From the NCBI GenBank assembly GCA_036338595.1, contig JAYZBV010000108.1, positions 1 through 29,705 on the forward strand: a stretch of DNA of 29,705 nucleotides. Reading direction: 5' to 3'. The position numbers and the translations under genes were made by a program. This document shows, in pieces, positions 22,083 through 29,705 of this stretch; position 1 is the stretch's first letter, and every line of letters begins with the position of its first letter. The DNA is from Planctomycetota bacterium (GTDB lineage Bacteria > Planctomycetota > UBA8108 > UBA1146). The notes under the pieces are model-generated. The model was not told the origin of the DNA. It worked only from the letters and a program-made list of their open reading frames with translations, and searched no databases.

Positions 22083-24731
22083 ATGTGGATGGCTCTTCTG
22101 TTGGCGATGGCATGGCTTCCTGTTCCTGCCCTGCCCGGCTCCGATGTGGTGGATCCGGTCGGAGGTGAAGGAGCCCGTGGTGTGCTCACCTTTCGGGTCG
22201 AATCCAGCGAGGGAAATACGGTTCCCGCTCGGCTCACCTTTCGTGAGCCAGACGGATCCAAGCCCTCTCTCTTCATGAACCGGGCCGCAAATCCGTCAGA
22301 TCTGGCCATCCGGGCCGATGTGATCTGCACACTCTCTGGTGCTGGCAGCATCACCGTGCCAACCGGCACCTGGAAGGTCTATGCCAGCCGTGGTCCCGAA
22401 TGGAGCATCGATCAACAAACCATCATCATCGAAACGGACCAGACTCTCGAGATCACCCTTTCACTGGAACACCAGGTCGACACCCGCGGCTGGGCTGCGG
22501 CTGATTACCACCTCCACACACTGACCCACTCGGGGCATGGCGACAGCAACATGCCCGAGCGCATCATCAGCATCGCCAGCGAAGCACTCGAGGTGGGTGT
22601 CGCCACCGATCACAACGTTCACACTGACTACTCCGACATCATCTCTGAACTGGGAGCTGGCGATGAATTTCAGGGGATCGTCGGTAACGAGATCTCGGTG
22701 CCGCTGGGCCACTTCAATGCGTTCCCGCTGGAACCGTGGGCCAATGTCATCGATCGAAATTCCGCCGACGGCCCGGCACTCTTCAGGGCAGTCCGCGCCG
22801 CAGGAGATGCATCTGGCAATATCCCGGTGGTACAGGTCAACCATCCGCGCTGGGAGGGCATCGATTACTTCCGCGTTGCAGGGCTGGACCCCATCACCGG
22901 GGGGTCGGTAGCCAGAAACTGGTCGGTCGATTTCGATAGCGTCGAGATCTTCAATGAAAACGCCGGCTGGGGTTACAGAGATGCCGACAATACCGAGCAC
23001 ATGGTCGGTTCCAGTCGCCACTGGGTGCTGCAGGACTGGCAAAACCTGCTCAACCACGGTGCCAGGGTCACCGGTGTCGGCAACTCTGATAGTCACACCG
23101 TCTCTTCCAACCTGGCTGGCTGGCCACGGAACTACTTTCCCTCATCGAGCGATCTTCCCGCCGAAATTTCGGTGAAGGAGGTGTGCGATACCGTGAAGGC
23201 GGGCCAGATCGTCACCACCTTTGGTCCCTTCGTTACATTCTCGGTCAATGACGCTTCGATGGGTGAAATCGTGACCGCGAGCAATGCTGCAGTACGCCTC
23301 AAGACGAAGGTGCAGGCAGCAGACTGGATCGATGTGGATCGAGTGCTGGTGATCGTCGACGGCGATATCGTCGAGACGATTCCCGTTCCCGACACGCGAG
23401 AGATTGTTCGTCTTCTCGACGAACGAAAGATCCCCGTACGCACCGATGGCTGGATCTCACTGCGAGTCGAGGGCGATGACAGCCTCGACCCCATCGTTCC
23501 CGGATCCAAGCGGCCCGTTTTACCGATCGCCATCACCAATCCTGTCTATGTCGACGCCGATGGCGACGGAAAGTACACGCCTCCTGTGGAAGTGGCGCGG
23601 CTGTGGATAGAGCAACATGGAGACAACGAGTCGATGCTGTATGCCGAGTGGCAAGCGCGCCAGCCGAACCAGCGCGCCTCGATGCTCCACGCCTGCAATG
23701 TGGACTCCGCATCCACTCGAACCCTCGCGCGGTGGGGTATCACCGACCCCTCTCGACTGGTCAGGCTCTGTGCCTGCCGTCTCATCGAGAGGATCGGCTG
23801 CGGCGACGATCCGGCGCTGAAGCAGCCCATCATCGAGATCGCCACTGCAGAAGGGTCCGATCCCTGGCTTCGAGTCGTGGCCATCCGCGCTCTGGCCGCC
23901 GATGTGGCGGGCGATATTCTGGCCGATCTGCTCCGGAATTCGGGCCAGCAGAGCTTTTCTCCCCATGCATCCGAGATCACACATCTTCTGCCGGGACAAT
24001 GGGTGATGAAGTGGCGCGCCACCGATCCGTTGCCGTTCAGCGGCGAAGATGGATTGCGCAAGGTGCTGGCGATGCCGTGGGCAGACCGACCCTTCAAGCG
24101 AACCGTACTGGCAGCCGAGTCGGGCATCGTCGATCTCAAAAAGTATGCCGCCGCCCATGGCCGCAGCGAGAAGTGCACCGTTGTCCTCGATTGCGTTCTC
24201 TACAGCCCCGACGATCGGATGGTGACCATCGCCGCAGGATCCGATGACGGCTGCATCCTCAAGGTTGGAAATCAGCTATTGATCGAGGACTTCGCCCAGC
24301 AGGGGGTCGATCCGATGCGACATCTTGTACAAGTTTCTCTGCAACGCGGCTCGAACTCGCTGGTGATGCTGATCGAGAATGGCGGCGGCGGATACGGCGC
24401 AGCGGTGAGGATCCTCGATGACGAGGTGAGGATCGCGCAGGCGGGAGCGTCGCAGTCCAGAAGGTCGACTGGCGATCCGCTGCAACGAATCACATCCGAC
24501 ATGGCGGGAATCGAGGCAGCTGCCCAGTTGTTCTTCCTCGACAAGGGACGCTGGCCGAAGAATCTCGACGAATTGACCGATGACAATGGACTGGTGCTTC
24601 CAGTGGTCGACCCCTGGGGCAACAACTACCGATTACACAGCAGTACCACCCGCTTCACCGTGCTGTGCCTAGGCGCAGATGGCTCCGAGGGTGGAGATGG
24701 AATCAACGCCGATATCGTCTCGAGTAATTGA
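22083..24731 (+). CDS. Secreted CehA/McbA-family (PHP-like) metallohydrolase with HEAT-like region, beta-sandwich domain and C-terminal GspG-like domain
   Basis: GAGGAGG RBS; signal peptide; VYASRGPEWS, ADYHLHT, ATDHN, GNEI, GHFNAFP, NHPR, GNSDSH, ITNPVYVDADGDG; later GSDDG motif and DPWGNNY...LGADGSEGGDGINADI. Confidence 0.85.
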   Translation: MWMALLLAMAWLPVPALPGSDVVDPVGGEGARGVLTFRVESSEGNTVPARLTFREPDGSKPSLFMNRAANPSDLAIRADVICTLSGAGSITVPTGTWKVYASRGPEWSIDQQTIIIETDQTLEITLSLEHQVDTRGWAAADYHLHTLTHSGHGDSNMPERIISIASEALEVGVATDHNVHTDYSDIISELGAGDEFQGIVGNEISVPLGHFNAFPLEPWANVIDRNSADGPALFRAVRAAGDASGNIPVVQVNHPRWEGIDYFRVAGLDPITGGSVARNWSVDFDSVEIFNENAGWGYRDADNTEHMVGSSRHWVLQDWQNLLNHGARVTGVGNSDSHTVSSNLAGWPRNYFPSSSDLPAEISVKEVCDTVKAGQIVTTFGPFVTFSVNDASMGEIVTASNAAVRLKTKVQAADWIDVDRVLVIVDGDIVETIPVPDTREIVRLLDERKIPVRTDGWISLRVEGDDSLDPIVPGSKRPVLPIAITNPVYVDADGDGKYTPPVEVARLWIEQHGDNESMLYAEWQARQPNQRASMLHACNVDSASTRTLARWGITDPSRLVRLCACRLIERIGCGDDPALKQPIIEIATAEGSDPWLRVVAIRALAADVAGDILADLLRNSGQQSFSPHASEITHLLPGQWVMKWRATDPLPFSGEDGLRKVLAMPWADRPFKRTVLAAESGIVDLKKYAAAHGRSEKCTVVLDCVLYSPDDRMVTIAAGSDDGCILKVGNQLLIEDFAQQGVDPMRHLVQVSLQRGSNSLVMLIENGGGGYGAAVRILDDEVRIAQAGASQSRRSTGDPLQRITSDMAGIEAAAQLFFLDKGRWPKNLDELTDDNGLVLPVVDPWGNNYRLHSSTTRFTVLCLGADGSEGGDGINADIVSSN

Positions 24732-24759: not shown

Positions 24760-26724
24760 TCAGCCCAGCTCGTCCAGTTTCTCACTGCGTATCTCGCGGC
24801 GATCACCCTTGCGGCGAGTCCAACCACTCTTGTCGAGGTACTCCAGCAACGGAATCGCAAATTTTCTCGTCGTGCCCAGGGCATCCTTGGCCTGGGAGGC
24901 GGAGAAGGCTCCTTCACTCTCGAATAACTGTGCCAGCTTCTTCACTGCGCCCGGTATCGCCTCTGCCGACAGTGCCACATCGCTGGCGATCCGGATCACC
25001 TCGCCGCGGTCGATGAGAAAGGCCTGCAACTTCTCGATCAGCGAAATCTCTACACCGATGGTGCTCGCCAGATCTTCCGCCCTGGCCGGATCAAAGAGGT
25101 GCTGCTGATAGTGCTCTCGCAGTGACGTGAGTGCGGCCTGCTCGGTGTCGGAGAACTCCGGCTCTCTGCCTGGCTGGAGAATTCGTCCGCCTCGAATCTT
25201 CTCGATCTTTCCCCCGGCAGCAAGATCCTCGATCACCTTGTCGAGAAAGGCATCGACGAGCCGGGTTCGATCACGGATCTCCAGAACCTTGACCGAGATC
25301 CTGTAGGGGTCTTCTCGGTAGGCATGATCGAGGGCGTCAAGCACTCTCTCTGCACCTCGTTCAAGTCCCTCCCTCAGTGCCCACTTCCCATCCGAGGTCG
25401 GCTCGATGACACCGGCCTGTTGAAGACTGCTCAGACTGTTCGCCACATCTTCAGTGGTCATCGCAGCTCGACGCGCCAGATCGGCCTGCTCGTGGATCTC
25501 CAGTTCTTCTTCCTGCATGACACTGGTGATGAACGCTTCCGGTGTACCCAGAGCATCCATCTTTCGCCGCATCGATTCGACAATAAATTCCTTGCCCGCC
25601 TTGAGCCTCCAGCGTGATCTGTCGAGCACTTCTCCACCGCCGAGAGTCACCATCGGAGATGCCTGTCTCAACACGAAGCGATCTCCCGGAGCCACGACCA
25701 CCGGCTGATCGAGCCGGATCTGGGCCAGTGCCTCACCGCCAGCCTCTACCGTCTGGCAGTCGATGAGGTAAAGACGGCCCACCGCTTCCATCGTTCCCTG
25801 GAGAAAACGAACTGGCATCCGGTGCACCATCGGTTTTGCCAGACTATCGAGTGCCCTCAGACTCACCTCCACCATCTCGGTGGCACGGAAAAAGCCCGGT
25901 GTAGCAGCAATCATGCCACGGTGAAGATCTCGGTAGTCCACATCGGCGAGGTTGATGGCAGTGGAGTGCCCGGCGCGCGCCTTCTCCACCTGAACCCTGT
26001 AAGCCTGAAGCCCCCGGACACGCCCCGTCTTTCCAGGCGGCAGCAATTCGAGTCGGTCATCGAGTTTGACCTGCCCGCTGACAGGCACACCGGTCACGAC
26101 GGTGCCATGGCCACGAGACGAAAACACACGCTGGATCGGCAGGCGAAAGACTCCGCTCCCGTCACGGGGAGGCAGTTCTCGAACCATCGTCTGGACCAGT
26201 TGACGCAGATCATCCACACCTTCACCGGTCTCTGCACTGACCGATATCATCGGAGCATCTTCAAGAAATGTTCCTGAGATCATCTCGCGGACTTCTTCCT
26301 GCACCAGGTCCACCATGTCGGCCTCGACCAGATCGATCTTGTTGATGGCGATGATTCCGCGGCGGACTCCGAGCAGCGTCATGATGTCGAGGTGTTCCAT
26401 CGTCTGGGGCATCACCGAGTCATCTGCGGCCACGACCAGGATGACGATGTCGATACCACTGGCACCCGCGACCATGTTCCGGATGAACTTCTCGTGACCC
26501 GGCACATCGATGATCCCGACCAGTTCGCCGTCATCGAGCGACATCGGAGCAAAACCGAGATCGATGGTCAGACCCCTGTCCTTCTCCTCTGGCAGCCGAT
26601 CGGGGTCGATTCCGGTCAGTTTTCTGACCAGAGATGACTTGCCGTGGTCGATGTGCCCTGCAGTGCCCACGACGACCCCGAATATTGTCGCTTCTGGTTG
26701 TGCCACTGGCTTCCTCCCGGTCAC
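24760..26724 (-). CDS. selB: Selenocysteine-specific translation elongation factor
   Basis: GTAGHIDHGKS, DRLPEEKDRGLTIDLGFA, DVPGHEKFIRNMVAG, FRLPIQRVFS; C-terminal SECIS-binding winged helix LGTTRKFAIPLLEYLDKSGWTRRKGDRR. Confidence 0.96.
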   Translation of the reverse strand: MTGRKPVAQPEATIFGVVVGTAGHIDHGKSSLVRKLTGIDPDRLPEEKDRGLTIDLGFAPMSLDDGELVGIIDVPGHEKFIRNMVAGASGIDIVILVVAADDSVMPQTMEHLDIMTLLGVRRGIIAINKIDLVEADMVDLVQEEVREMISGTFLEDAPMISVSAETGEGVDDLRQLVQTMVRELPPRDGSGVFRLPIQRVFSSRGHGTVVTGVPVSGQVKLDDRLELLPPGKTGRVRGLQAYRVQVEKARAGHSTAINLADVDYRDLHRGMIAATPGFFRATEMVEVSLRALDSLAKPMVHRMPVRFLQGTMEAVGRLYLIDCQTVEAGGEALAQIRLDQPVVVAPGDRFVLRQASPMVTLGGGEVLDRSRWRLKAGKEFIVESMRRKMDALGTPEAFITSVMQEEELEIHEQADLARRAAMTTEDVANSLSSLQQAGVIEPTSDGKWALREGLERGAERVLDALDHAYREDPYRISVKVLEIRDRTRLVDAFLDKVIEDLAAGGKIEKIRGGRILQPGREPEFSDTEQAALTSLREHYQQHLFDPARAEDLASTIGVEISLIEKLQAFLIDRGEVIRIASDVALSAEAIPGAVKKLAQLFESEGAFSASQAKDALGTTRKFAIPLLEYLDKSGWTRRKGDRREIRSEKLDELG

Positions 26725-28474: not shown

Positions 28475-28882
28475 CTAGTCGAGGATCACCTGGATGAAAC
28501 CGTCAACATCGGTGCTGTCGATCTGCACCTCCCACAGCCCGGAGATACCGAAACTGGATATCGACTTGGAGCGCAGCGTTCCACCGTTGCCGAAGTAGAT
28601 CTCATCGAAGATCAGGATCTTGAAATCGTCGTAGATCCGCACACGCACCATGCCGTAAAAGCCGATCCCCTCGAAGGAAACAAATGCGTCATTGAGGATC
28701 GTGTCCCAGAAGTAACTCTCCGAGGAATTGTAGGCAAAGAAATCACCCTCGTAGATGAAATCCACAGCAGATGCCGAGGCGATCGGATCGTTGTAGCAGC
28801 CATCTGAACAGCGAGGCGGGTTGCAGCCGGTAAAGGTCAGCAACAGCGCACATCCGAGCAGCATCAGGAAAGAAAATCTCAT
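28475..28882 (-). CDS. Hypothetical lipoprotein (135 aa)
   Basis: GAAGGGGG RBS; MRFSFLMLLGCALLLTFTG-C lipobox-like signal; acidic/aromatic beta-rich mature part ending GLWEVQIDSTDVDGFIQVILD. Confidence 0.75.
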   Translation of the reverse strand: MRFSFLMLLGCALLLTFTGCNPPRCSDGCYNDPIASASAVDFIYEGDFFAYNSSESYFWDTILNDAFVSFEGIGFYGMVRVRIYDDFKILIFDEIYFGNGGTLRSKSISSFGISGLWEVQIDSTDVDGFIQVILD

Positions 28883-29105
28883 CGTCTTTCCCCCTTCACC
28901 AGAGAAGCACCCCATGTACCCCTCTCAAGGCAATAGACGCACGAATACCGCCTGTATTCTAAACAATCCGGTAATCTTTGTATCGAGACTACATGGCGAT
29001 GTTGGTCATGCCACCGCGCACCATCTTGATGTAACATGAGGTGTTCGCGATGCGTGGGCATCGCACGTTTGCACTACCGCCACAGCCCCGCCGAAAGGTT
29101 GCGCC

Positions 29106-29273
29106 ATGAATGACGAGAAGAAGCTCTCCGACGACGATTTGAAGGACATTGCAGGAGGAGCCGGCAAGGTAACACCCTCCAAGAAAGAGTCCAAAGGTGA
29201 TGGAACGAAGGAAGAGACCAAGCCAGGTTTCAGTGCGGGTGCCGGACTCGATTCGGGTAGCAAGGGCAAGTAA
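29106..29273 (+). CDS. Double-glycine-leader peptide precursor 1 (55 aa)
   Basis: Below the ORF-track cutoff. AAAGG 7 nt upstream of ATG; MNDEKKLSDDDLKDIAGG-AGKVTPSKKESKGDGTKEETKPGFSAGAGLDSGSKGK*. Confidence 0.85.
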   Translation: MNDEKKLSDDDLKDIAGGAGKVTPSKKESKGDGTKEETKPGFSAGAGLDSGSKGK

Positions 29274-29290
29274 CTCCACAGGGAGCTGAC

Positions 29291-29335
29291 GGTGGCAGAT
29301 GGGCTCCTCGACGGTGCCCGTCTGCCCCCTTTTTT
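29291..29335 (+). terminator. Intrinsic terminator after precursor 1
   Basis: GGCAGATGGGC-TCCTCGACGGT-GCCCGTCTGCC-CCC-TTTTTT (11-bp stem with one G-U pair). Confidence 0.85.
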
Positions 29336-29409
29336 GACCGACCAGAAGCCGAGAGGTGCGCAAGGATGTCCTTCGCATTACAGCCACAGCCCCGCCGAAA
29401 GGTTACGCC

Positions 29410-29571
29410 ATGAATGACGAGAAGAAGCTCTCCGACGACGAGTTGAAGGATGTTGCAGGAGGAGTCAGGACCTTCAACTCCGCCAAGTCCAACACCAGTT
29501 TCAGTGTTGACGACAAAAAAGACGGAGACCCCAATAAGGGAGAAATCTCAAAAGGCACACCTGTCAAGTAA
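29410..29571 (+). CDS. Double-glycine-leader peptide precursor 2 (53 aa)
   Basis: AAAGG 7 nt upstream of ATG 29410 (the ORF track starts it too early, at 29356); MNDEKKLSDDELKDVAGG-VRTFNSAKSNTSFSVDDKKDGDPNKGEISKGTPVK*. Confidence 0.85.
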   Translation: MNDEKKLSDDELKDVAGGVRTFNSAKSNTSFSVDDKKDGDPNKGEISKGTPVK

Positions 29572-29588
29572 CTCCACAGGGAGCTGAC

Positions 29589-29633
29589 GGTGGCAGATGG
29601 GCTCCCTGATGGTGCCCGTCTGCCCCCTTTTTT
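29589..29633 (+). terminator. Intrinsic terminator after precursor 2
   Basis: GGCAGATGGGC-TCCCTGATGGT-GCCCGTCTGCC-CCC-TTTTTT; stem identical to the first copy, loop changed. Confidence 0.85.
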
Positions 29634-29705
29634 GCCCGACCAGAAACGAGATGGTCGCCAAGCCGTCCTTCGCCTCTCCATGGGCCAGGACCAGAAAGGA
29701 CTCGA

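Follow-up and report, generated by a model that had tools for sequence, protein, structure and literature searches.

Tandem double-glycine-leader peptide genes in an uncultured planctomycete: predicted C39-type export and cores built from motif blocks common to several lineages

The CCRG-2 peptides of Prochlorococcus and Synechococcus are defined, as the family name indicates, by their induction in co-culture. They are described in PMC8120280 as small secreted peptides, and Wang et al. (PMC3140520) report little conservation among cyanobacterial cores. The three-gene NHLP/Nif11 export cassette is treated by Haft et al. 2010 (PMC2887384). PMC5974335 mentions CCRG-1 only, and the terms CCRG, Hcp and pilin do not occur in the text of PMC10783134. 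The literature searched, which held few subscription papers and had the original CCRG-2 description outside its scope, yielded no planctomycete family and no shared borrowed motifs. The two peptides described here, which carry double-glycine (GG) leaders, appear to work like CCRG-2 peptides but fall outside that family by model, as neither they (at E<=5) nor 14 planctomycete paralogues matched NF033456 (cut-off 24 bits).

The window analysed in this study is an entire contig of 29,705 nucleotides (C108 of the genome labelled G000). The initial annotation had described, near its right end, two tandem 304-bp cassettes, each with a ribosome binding site (RBS), a leader, a core and a TAA stop codon, and this description was borne out (Table 1). 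The open reading frames of units 1 and 2 occupy positions 29106-29273 (55 aa) and 29410-29571 (53 aa), with start codons spaced 304 nt, and GAAAGG is placed 7 nt upstream of the ATG in both. The leader DNAs are identical at 51 of 54 nt, and the flanks at 28/30 positions upstream (5') and 77/81 downstream (3'). Both units read GGA-GGA and then G, after which the cores (37 and 35 aa) align poorly up to a joint ending, CAAGTAA. The expectation that gene callers would mis-start these genes was also correct, for a 71-aa version of unit 2, begun at an upstream GTG, is present in the protein collection (P0012).

Table 1. Positions of the peptide cassette elements in the window and of the exporter cassette elsewhere in the same genome.
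Feature	Position	Strand	Basis or remarks
Shine-Dalgarno-like GAAAGGT, unit 1	29093..29099	+	sequence; similar purine tracts precede listed family starts
Unit 1 double-glycine leader, 18 aa (Leu-12, Leu-7, Ile-4, Gly-Gly)	29106..29159	+	
Unit 1 core, 37 aa, and stop	29160..29273	+	GRAVY -1.22, net +3, hydrophilic; tail also found in relatives whose head is of unit-2 type
Unit 1 hairpin (11-bp stem) and U6 tract	29294..29335	+	
Shine-Dalgarno-like GAAAGGT, unit 2	29397..29403	+	sequence
Unit 2 double-glycine leader, 18 aa (Leu-12, Leu-7, Val-4, Gly-Gly)	29410..29463	+	
Unit 2 core, 35 aa, and stop	29464..29571	+	GRAVY -1.2, net +2
Conserved unit 2 core block FNSAKSNTS (family form YNSSKSNTS)	29473..29499	+	
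Unit 2 hairpin and U6 tract	29592..29633	+	
Probable third precursor: upstream region and RBS, cut by contig end	29678..29705	+	comparison with L008
Exporter cassette	G000:C68:6748-14219 (L034)		GG precursor, cNMP-binding gene, TIGR03794, TIGR03796, TIGR03797 in order

The elements that follow the stop codons had been called terminators. The 11-bp hairpins with their U6 tracts are real (-33.8 kcal/mol and z -3.2 each, equalled by 0/200 and 2/200 shuffles for units 1 and 2), and in one of eight aligned rows, a single relative, two pairs are altered on both sides of the stem. A simple terminator scan of the window listed neither of them because their T run begins 3 nt past the stem, while the scan permits 0-2. 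However, in three relatives (L007, L009 and L010) the following ATG lies about 20 nt beyond the U tract, leaving no room for a promoter, so the hairpin is more likely a leaky terminator or a stabilising element than a full stop. A Sigma-70 promoter scan of the window returned no match. A small hairpin 5' of unit 1 (29046-29066; z 0.64, not significant alone) keeps its stem and varies in its loop in L008, L010 and L007.

The array probably continues beyond the assembly. The relative L008 aligns to window positions 29378-29704 at 88% (blastn), and the final 28 nt of the contig match the RBS region of a third precursor in that relative, suggesting that the contig end truncates the array before its third gene. 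Gene order in relatives (L007-L010, L137, L140-L142 and L144) places after unit 2 a gene with a 26-aa leader, whose core most often starts with a Flp-pilin motif. The left-hand neighbours of the cassettes (a pseudouridine synthase, a 146-aa open reading frame and SelB) are unrelated to them. The 146-aa frame (28475-28915, minus strand) is lipoprotein-like, has no family match and is divergent from the cassettes, beside which its position is kept across the genus. The SelB elongation factor gene (24760-26724) implies that the organism probably uses selenocysteine, and positions 22083-24731 encode an 882-aa protein in which a PHP-like region is joined to HEAT-like repeats and, at the C-terminus, to a T2SS-G-like domain (E 7e-8).

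The window peptides belong to a multi-copy family, as the initial annotation had proposed. In G000, GG-leader genes number six or more and are spread over three contigs; a further remnant, on C34, is doubtful. A second tandem precursor pair with 26-28-aa leaders (G000:C37:29271-29730, that is L001:14272-14729, minus strand) sits between tRNA-Phe and a gene that we take to be vWA-like; one of its cores ends HNSGRSN. A leader profile built from 24 rows, used on 28 genomes of the taxonomic family, matched 18 of them, including all eight other genomes of the genus, with up to 13-20 matches per genome. From the loci, 110 distinct leader-core pairs were extracted; leaving out one 258-aa reading and seven Prochlorococcus rows gave 102 cores, a set in which some entries are close orthologues, a few are partial and one is a nested reading, and which covers the fetched subset of profile matches. 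The assignment of the organism to the planctomycetes is supported: six of seven non-cyanobacterial relatives bear Planctomycetota/Planctomycetia labels and one Bacillota.

Across 99 complete leaders, positions -14 to -3 have a column entropy of 0.4-2.1 bits, as against 3.0-4.0 bits at +1 and beyond; the conservation of the Gly-Gly columns is imposed, as the leader filter required it. Position -12 is L, V or I across the family, -7 is L or M, and -4 is V or I. Tested against double-glycine leader models, the window peptides gave matches below cut-off only, located in the leader: 12.9 bits (unit 1) and 15.5 bits (unit 2) on TIGR03949 (cut-off 21.5), and 16.8 bits for unit 2 on NF038167 (cut-off 32), which is also the best NF038167 score among the window peptides and paralogues. 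Assignment to a known Pfam or NCBIfam family was rejected on these results. The best ESM Atlas scores for the window peptides (0.88 and 0.87) fall in unnamed clusters and serve as leads only. In one precursor (L013:167-376) a second leader is nested in the core, which would allow two products per open reading frame; doubled leader starts also occur in L059 and L090.

The leader type proposed initially is supported by the residues themselves. According to PMC6363468, the LahT protease reads Leu-12, Leu-7 and Val-4 of the leader; the window leaders carry L/L/I (unit 1) and L/L/V (unit 2) at these positions, followed by Gly-Gly. Processing in trans had been suggested too, and a search for a C39 ABC transporter with HlyD succeeded: the sole C39 peptidase match in G000 lies on another contig, within a cassette whose three export genes all exceed their cut-offs (TIGR03794, 277.6 against 156.2; TIGR03796, 1032.3 against 853.3; TIGR03797, 845.2 against 709.4). 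The cNMP-binding gene ahead of this trio resembles TIGR03896, below cut-off. In PDB the C39 domain is closest to this LahT enzyme, 6MPZ (E 2e-47), and its catalytic Cys, His and Asp align. HlyD is encoded in the cassette, and TolC-family genes are present in the genome. Farther along the exporter contig are a homocysteine S-methyltransferase, a GNAT-aminotransferase fusion and a haem-oxygenase-like enzyme (L035).

Leaders and exporter co-occur. TIGR03796 is present, whole or split, in 19 of the 28 family genomes; leader matches were found in 17 of these 19 as against one of the nine others, these genomes being kin and not independent. Within genera g5 and g7, precursor and exporter show matching patchiness. 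In the two exporter genomes lacking a leader match (G009 and G021) the exporter is at a contig end, and G014, with no exporter in its assembly, has a single weak leader match that looks like a real orthologue. Outside the family the exporter occurs in one of 33 genomes (G060), and no precursor was found upstream of it in G060 or in G011. Leader residues, a cognate exporter and co-distribution thus agree in marking the window peptides as predicted C39/PCAT double-glycine substrates, and we regard their cleavage and export by this route as very probable.

Whether the peptides are modified before export bears on a further suggestion, the analogy with RiPPs such as prochlorosins. A constant leader end, many paralogues and the C39 motif speak for the analogy, while an 18-aa leader, the absence of recognised maturases and the composition of the cores speak against it, so that it is only weakly supported. 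A search of G000 for YcaO, PqqD/RRE and SPASM returned nothing (positive controls were detected; the assembly is 88% complete), and LanC-like or LanM proteins were found in 0/28 genomes, the positive control set being likewise undetected. Cys makes up 0.5% of core residues; 15 of 102 cores contain any, four contain two, and the window cores contain none. The peptides might still be genuine RiPPs whose modifying enzyme acts in trans, either a radical-SAM protein or the methyltransferase that follows some cassettes: the NHLP exporter is often tied to modified peptides (PMC2887384), the cores are rich in Ser, Thr and Asn, and G000 has 14 radical-SAM genes, all unclassified. The methyltransferase, a class I SAM enzyme resembling NF045823 below cut-off, is the next gene after the cassette in five relatives, which belong to two genera (L010:2023-2841; L012:1669-2505), and its close orthologues occur in 6/28 genomes, all of them precursor-bearing and five with the gene adjacent. 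However, it is missing from the intact loci L009, L137 and L142 and was not found in G000. It was therefore rejected as an obligatory maturase; it may tailor some of the peptides but is not required. Taken together, a genuine RiPP system seems quite unlikely.

The composition of the cores also bears on classical membrane-active class II bacteriocins. The 102 family cores are 13-54 aa long (median 35), with 15.7% Lys, 12.5% Gly and a median GRAVY of -1.2. The leader type fits a bacteriocin, and one paralogue (L001:14272-14457) passes TIGR03949 (25.1 over 21.5), although chiefly through its leader. In contrast, the window cores have no hydrophobic stretch (best 11-residue hydropathy, 0.32 and -0.55), GRAVY exceeds 0 in only five of the 102 family cores, and no immunity-like gene was recognised beside the window cassettes. 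We consider membrane-active bacteriocins very improbable.

The initial annotation had placed the boundary of variability at the Gly-Gly and had taken the core beyond it to be variable. Between paralogues the boundary does fall there, yet N-S-[SA]-K-S-N is retained after the Gly-Gly in 10 of the 11 unit 2 homologues, and a freely variable core was not borne out. In 11 unit-2-class genes the leader has a pN/pS of 0.22 and the NSSKSN block (core codons 4-12) one of 0.20, whereas a tail window free of gaps reaches 0.70; these are crude pooled estimates, and the class is defined by its motif, which depresses pN. They indicate that the block FNSAKSNTS is under purifying selection like the leader. 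In addition, a gene of a relative (L137) fuses a unit-2-type head to a unit-1 tail, and an RNA-run contig (X6) carries the same joint (29499->29196), from which we conclude that core heads and tails have been swapped. The codon-level constraint argues against untranslated duplicated repeats or an assembly artefact, as do the matches in all eight other genomes of the genus and the co-occurrence with the exporter. Such an artefact is scarcely credible, even though the cassettes lie at a contig end and RNA support for them is weak: short contigs cover parts of them in 4/4 RNA runs (four studies) at a depth of 1-14, but the runs had been selected on this stretch, their word shares are small (0.04-0.14), flanking DNA is covered too, and DNA carry-over is possible. 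This coverage is compatible with expression of the cassettes and nothing further.

Several cores carry motifs recognisable from other proteins. A Pfam search with 104 cores and core-bearing pieces (97 planctomycete, seven Prochlorococcus) gave no match for 92, including the window cores, and a nested leader for one. Two cores exceed the cut-off for Cu-binding_MopE, and two match eCIS_core weakly (E about 0.05). Positions 8-19 of the Flp_Fap model are matched by seven cores at E 8e-5 to 0.06, under the whole-pilin cut-off; the seven fall into two or three sets of orthologues. The match starts at the first residue after the Gly-Gly, which is presumably the pilin's own cleavage position. Lineages that diverge in their codons (pS 0.69) retain this motif in the protein; its pN is circular, as four rows were retrieved by the motif itself. 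No Flp pilin was found in G000.

Several candidate origins were examined. The likeness of the unit 2 block to an N-x-x-R-S-N stretch of Endonuclease I is borderline: a sister-core match (E 0.007) is within shuffle range, with 18/33 DNA identity, and neither the unit 2 core nor a donor for its block was matched in PDB. Three others were rejected. For motifs taken from genes of the host itself, 7-mer and short-blast matches to G000 were barely above shuffles once self-matches were excluded. A cold-shock-protein origin of GKKGLNAVNVK had no Pfam or PDB support, and a direct Hcp match of a planctomycete core was not seen in Pfam, while PDB gave EF-hand noise.

The motif blocks are not confined to planctomycetes. 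When 44 picocyanobacterial GG cores (L145 excluded) were compared with the 102 planctomycete cores, independently of the pattern search described below, seven 7-mers were shared, against a shuffle mean of 0.036 and a maximum of 2 in 500 shuffles. These 7-mers come from two motifs, FMKLGDIKGE and GMGLDRLGT; a 6-mer, ECKVPP, is also shared. Cross-phylum local alignment was rejected as evidence (top score 59, null up to 58), and the k-mer test was used alone. A Synechococcus-type CCRG-2 core with FMKLGDIKGE matches T6SS_HCP 1-36 over its cut-off (28 against 23.5) as well as solved Hcp-type chains, which identifies the motif as the Hcp N-terminus; this identity comes from the cyanobacterial core only. 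Picocyanobacterial CCRG-2 cores starting with the Hcp motif were seen at L161:1378-1503 and in L160, L159, L147 and L170, one of them over the Pfam cut-off.

A search for the GG-Flp junction pattern returned 10 metagenome loci: five of this genus's type, one of another lineage, adjoining a Nif11-leader gene, and four representing one picocyanobacterial-type locus; one of these four contains a CCRG-2 gene (NF033456, 29.3 over 24) with a core that begins with the Flp motif. This picocyanobacterial-type locus is also found in G346, of the Prochlorococcus genome's family; in that family the junction occurs in one of 401, as a degenerate-looking copy, and in viral contigs there was none. At L143:1438-2111, of unassigned lineage, a GG-Flp peptide adjoins a Cys-rich Nif11-leader precursor. 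NSSKSN-type precursors were found in 0/251 picocyanobacterial genomes (E<=1e-6, a search run without a positive control).

The unit 2 block is repeated five times in P0038, a protein named Ca. Poseidoniia. The N-terminal part of P0038 retrieved 63 proteins, of which 61 share its C-terminal domain and only two records bear an archaeal name. Two further planctomycete core motifs recur in this archaeal-type set, HEAAHVVQQ in 14/63 and GLNAVNVK in 2/63, although the query had neither. A single hydrophobic helix lies C-terminal to the motifs, which may be on the cytoplasmic side, an arrangement that fits an extracellular role awkwardly. The family (P0038 and P0054-P0115) consists of membrane proteins with a Gly/Asp-rich N-terminal region and repeated motifs shared with cores, and HDTAKASIN is also found there. 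P0034, a separate protein of 613 aa without Pfam or NCBIfam match, has eight repeats of RAQDYNSSRSN alternating with LRKRPGR, and thereby carries the unit 2 block in the form YNSSRSN.

These data show that the cores are modular, with conserved motif blocks common to several lineages. That three lineages should each have acquired this same handful of motifs separately would be unlikely without selection, and this, together with the constraint on the NSSKSN block and the protein-level retention of the Flp motif, weighs against the cores being neutral passengers, that is, DNA pieces captured behind a leader and serving at most a bulk role by composition, such as metal or nutrient binding or surface coating. 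Most cores are of low complexity and match nothing, those adjacent to the exporter carry no recognised motif, and head and tail shuffling is evident, all as that explanation would have it; we nevertheless consider it distinctly improbable. Alternatively, the same export might serve self-signalling pheromones read by the producer's own receptors in quorum or kin recognition, with the motif likeness incidental. GG-leader pheromones of the ComC/EntF type are established, one family member has an EntF match below cut-off, orthologous cores are conserved within the genus, and a cNMP-binding gene lies inside the exporter cassette. However, no receptor or two-component gene was seen beside the loci inspected, up to 13-20 leaders per genome are many for this purpose, and the recurrence of identical motifs in lineages far apart, as well as in an archaeal protein, suits private signals poorly. 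Private signalling is, in our estimate, rather unlikely.

The explanation that we find reasonably probable is that motif-displaying peptides, for the most part unmodified, are cleaved by the C39 domain, exported by a type I route and act on other cells; its uncertain half is the role of the motifs. Accordingly worded as a model, it proposes that: both window genes would be translated as precursors within a family-wide library of small secreted peptides; a single NHLP-type exporter (C39 ABC protein, second ABC subunit, HlyD and a TolC-type channel) would bind the short acidic leader, cut after Gly-Gly and export the core mostly unmodified; the core would be a hydrophilic spacer rich in Lys, Gly, Ser and Asp that displays one or two motifs of 8-14 residues; the cassettes would multiply by tandem duplication, and their heads and tails swap by recombination; and the active part would be the motifs, copied from conserved parts of proteins that belong to other microbes (residues +1 to +12 of the Flp pilin, the N-terminus of Hcp, a repeat like that of MopE, the HExxH stretch of the eCIS core and N-x-x-[KR]-S-N) and acting as ligands or mimics on the proteins of other cells.

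A bolder and doubtful extension is that marine plankton of two domains share a peptide lexicon copied from contact-attack and surface machines (the N-terminal helix of the Flp/Tad pilin, the N-terminus of the Hcp tube, the eCIS-core stretch and the nuclease-like N-x-x-R-S-N) and use it as decoys or competitive inhibitors. Planctomycetes and picocyanobacteria would secrete the motifs from GG-leader libraries, archaea would display them on a membrane protein, and predators, competitors or phages would be the targets, amounting to a defence through peptide mimicry whose repertoire is shuffled. Against this stand the facts that most cores match nothing known and that the archaeal copies may face the cytoplasm. 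Short of this extension, the sharing of motifs points to a common signalling or decoy vocabulary. A small set of motifs in Planctomycetota, Cyanobacteria and an archaeal protein family offers concrete targets that can be tested with cheap synthetic peptides, and a gene class that annotation misses or mis-starts proves to have expanded, to as many as 20 leader matches in a genome, among uncultured planctomycetes with small genomes.

Compared with known systems, the family resembles CTB (NF038167) and the class IIb lactobin A/cerein 7B group (TIGR03949) in its short GG leaders and weak leader-only matches, but the window peptides stay below both cut-offs and their cores are hydrophilic instead of hydrophobic and Gly/Ala-rich. 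With the prochlorosins (ProcA/ProcM) it shares a constant leader end, a variable core, many paralogues and a C39 cleavage motif; unlike them, it has no Nif11 leader, almost no Cys and conserved motif blocks in its cores, and no LanM was found. Its exporter is like the NHLP/Nif11 cassette, with three genes over cut-off in the same order, an upstream cNMP-binding gene and GG precursor, and substrates in trans. However, the planctomycete leaders are 18-33 aa long as against about 70-83 aa, the cores are not of the Cys/Ser/Thr heterocycle type, no cyclodehydratase or LanM was found, and the precursor models TIGR03793 and TIGR03798 gave no match for the window peptides and E about 0.07 for two paralogues. 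In design the family is like CCRG-2 (NF033456), which likewise has short GG leaders, numerous paralogues either scattered or in tandem, and diverse, mostly Cys-poor cores with some motifs in common, although the phylum is another and the window leaders are acidic and Lys-rich. While the export route was already known, the apparent reuse of borrowed motifs by GG-peptide cores across lineages has no counterpart in the literature searched.
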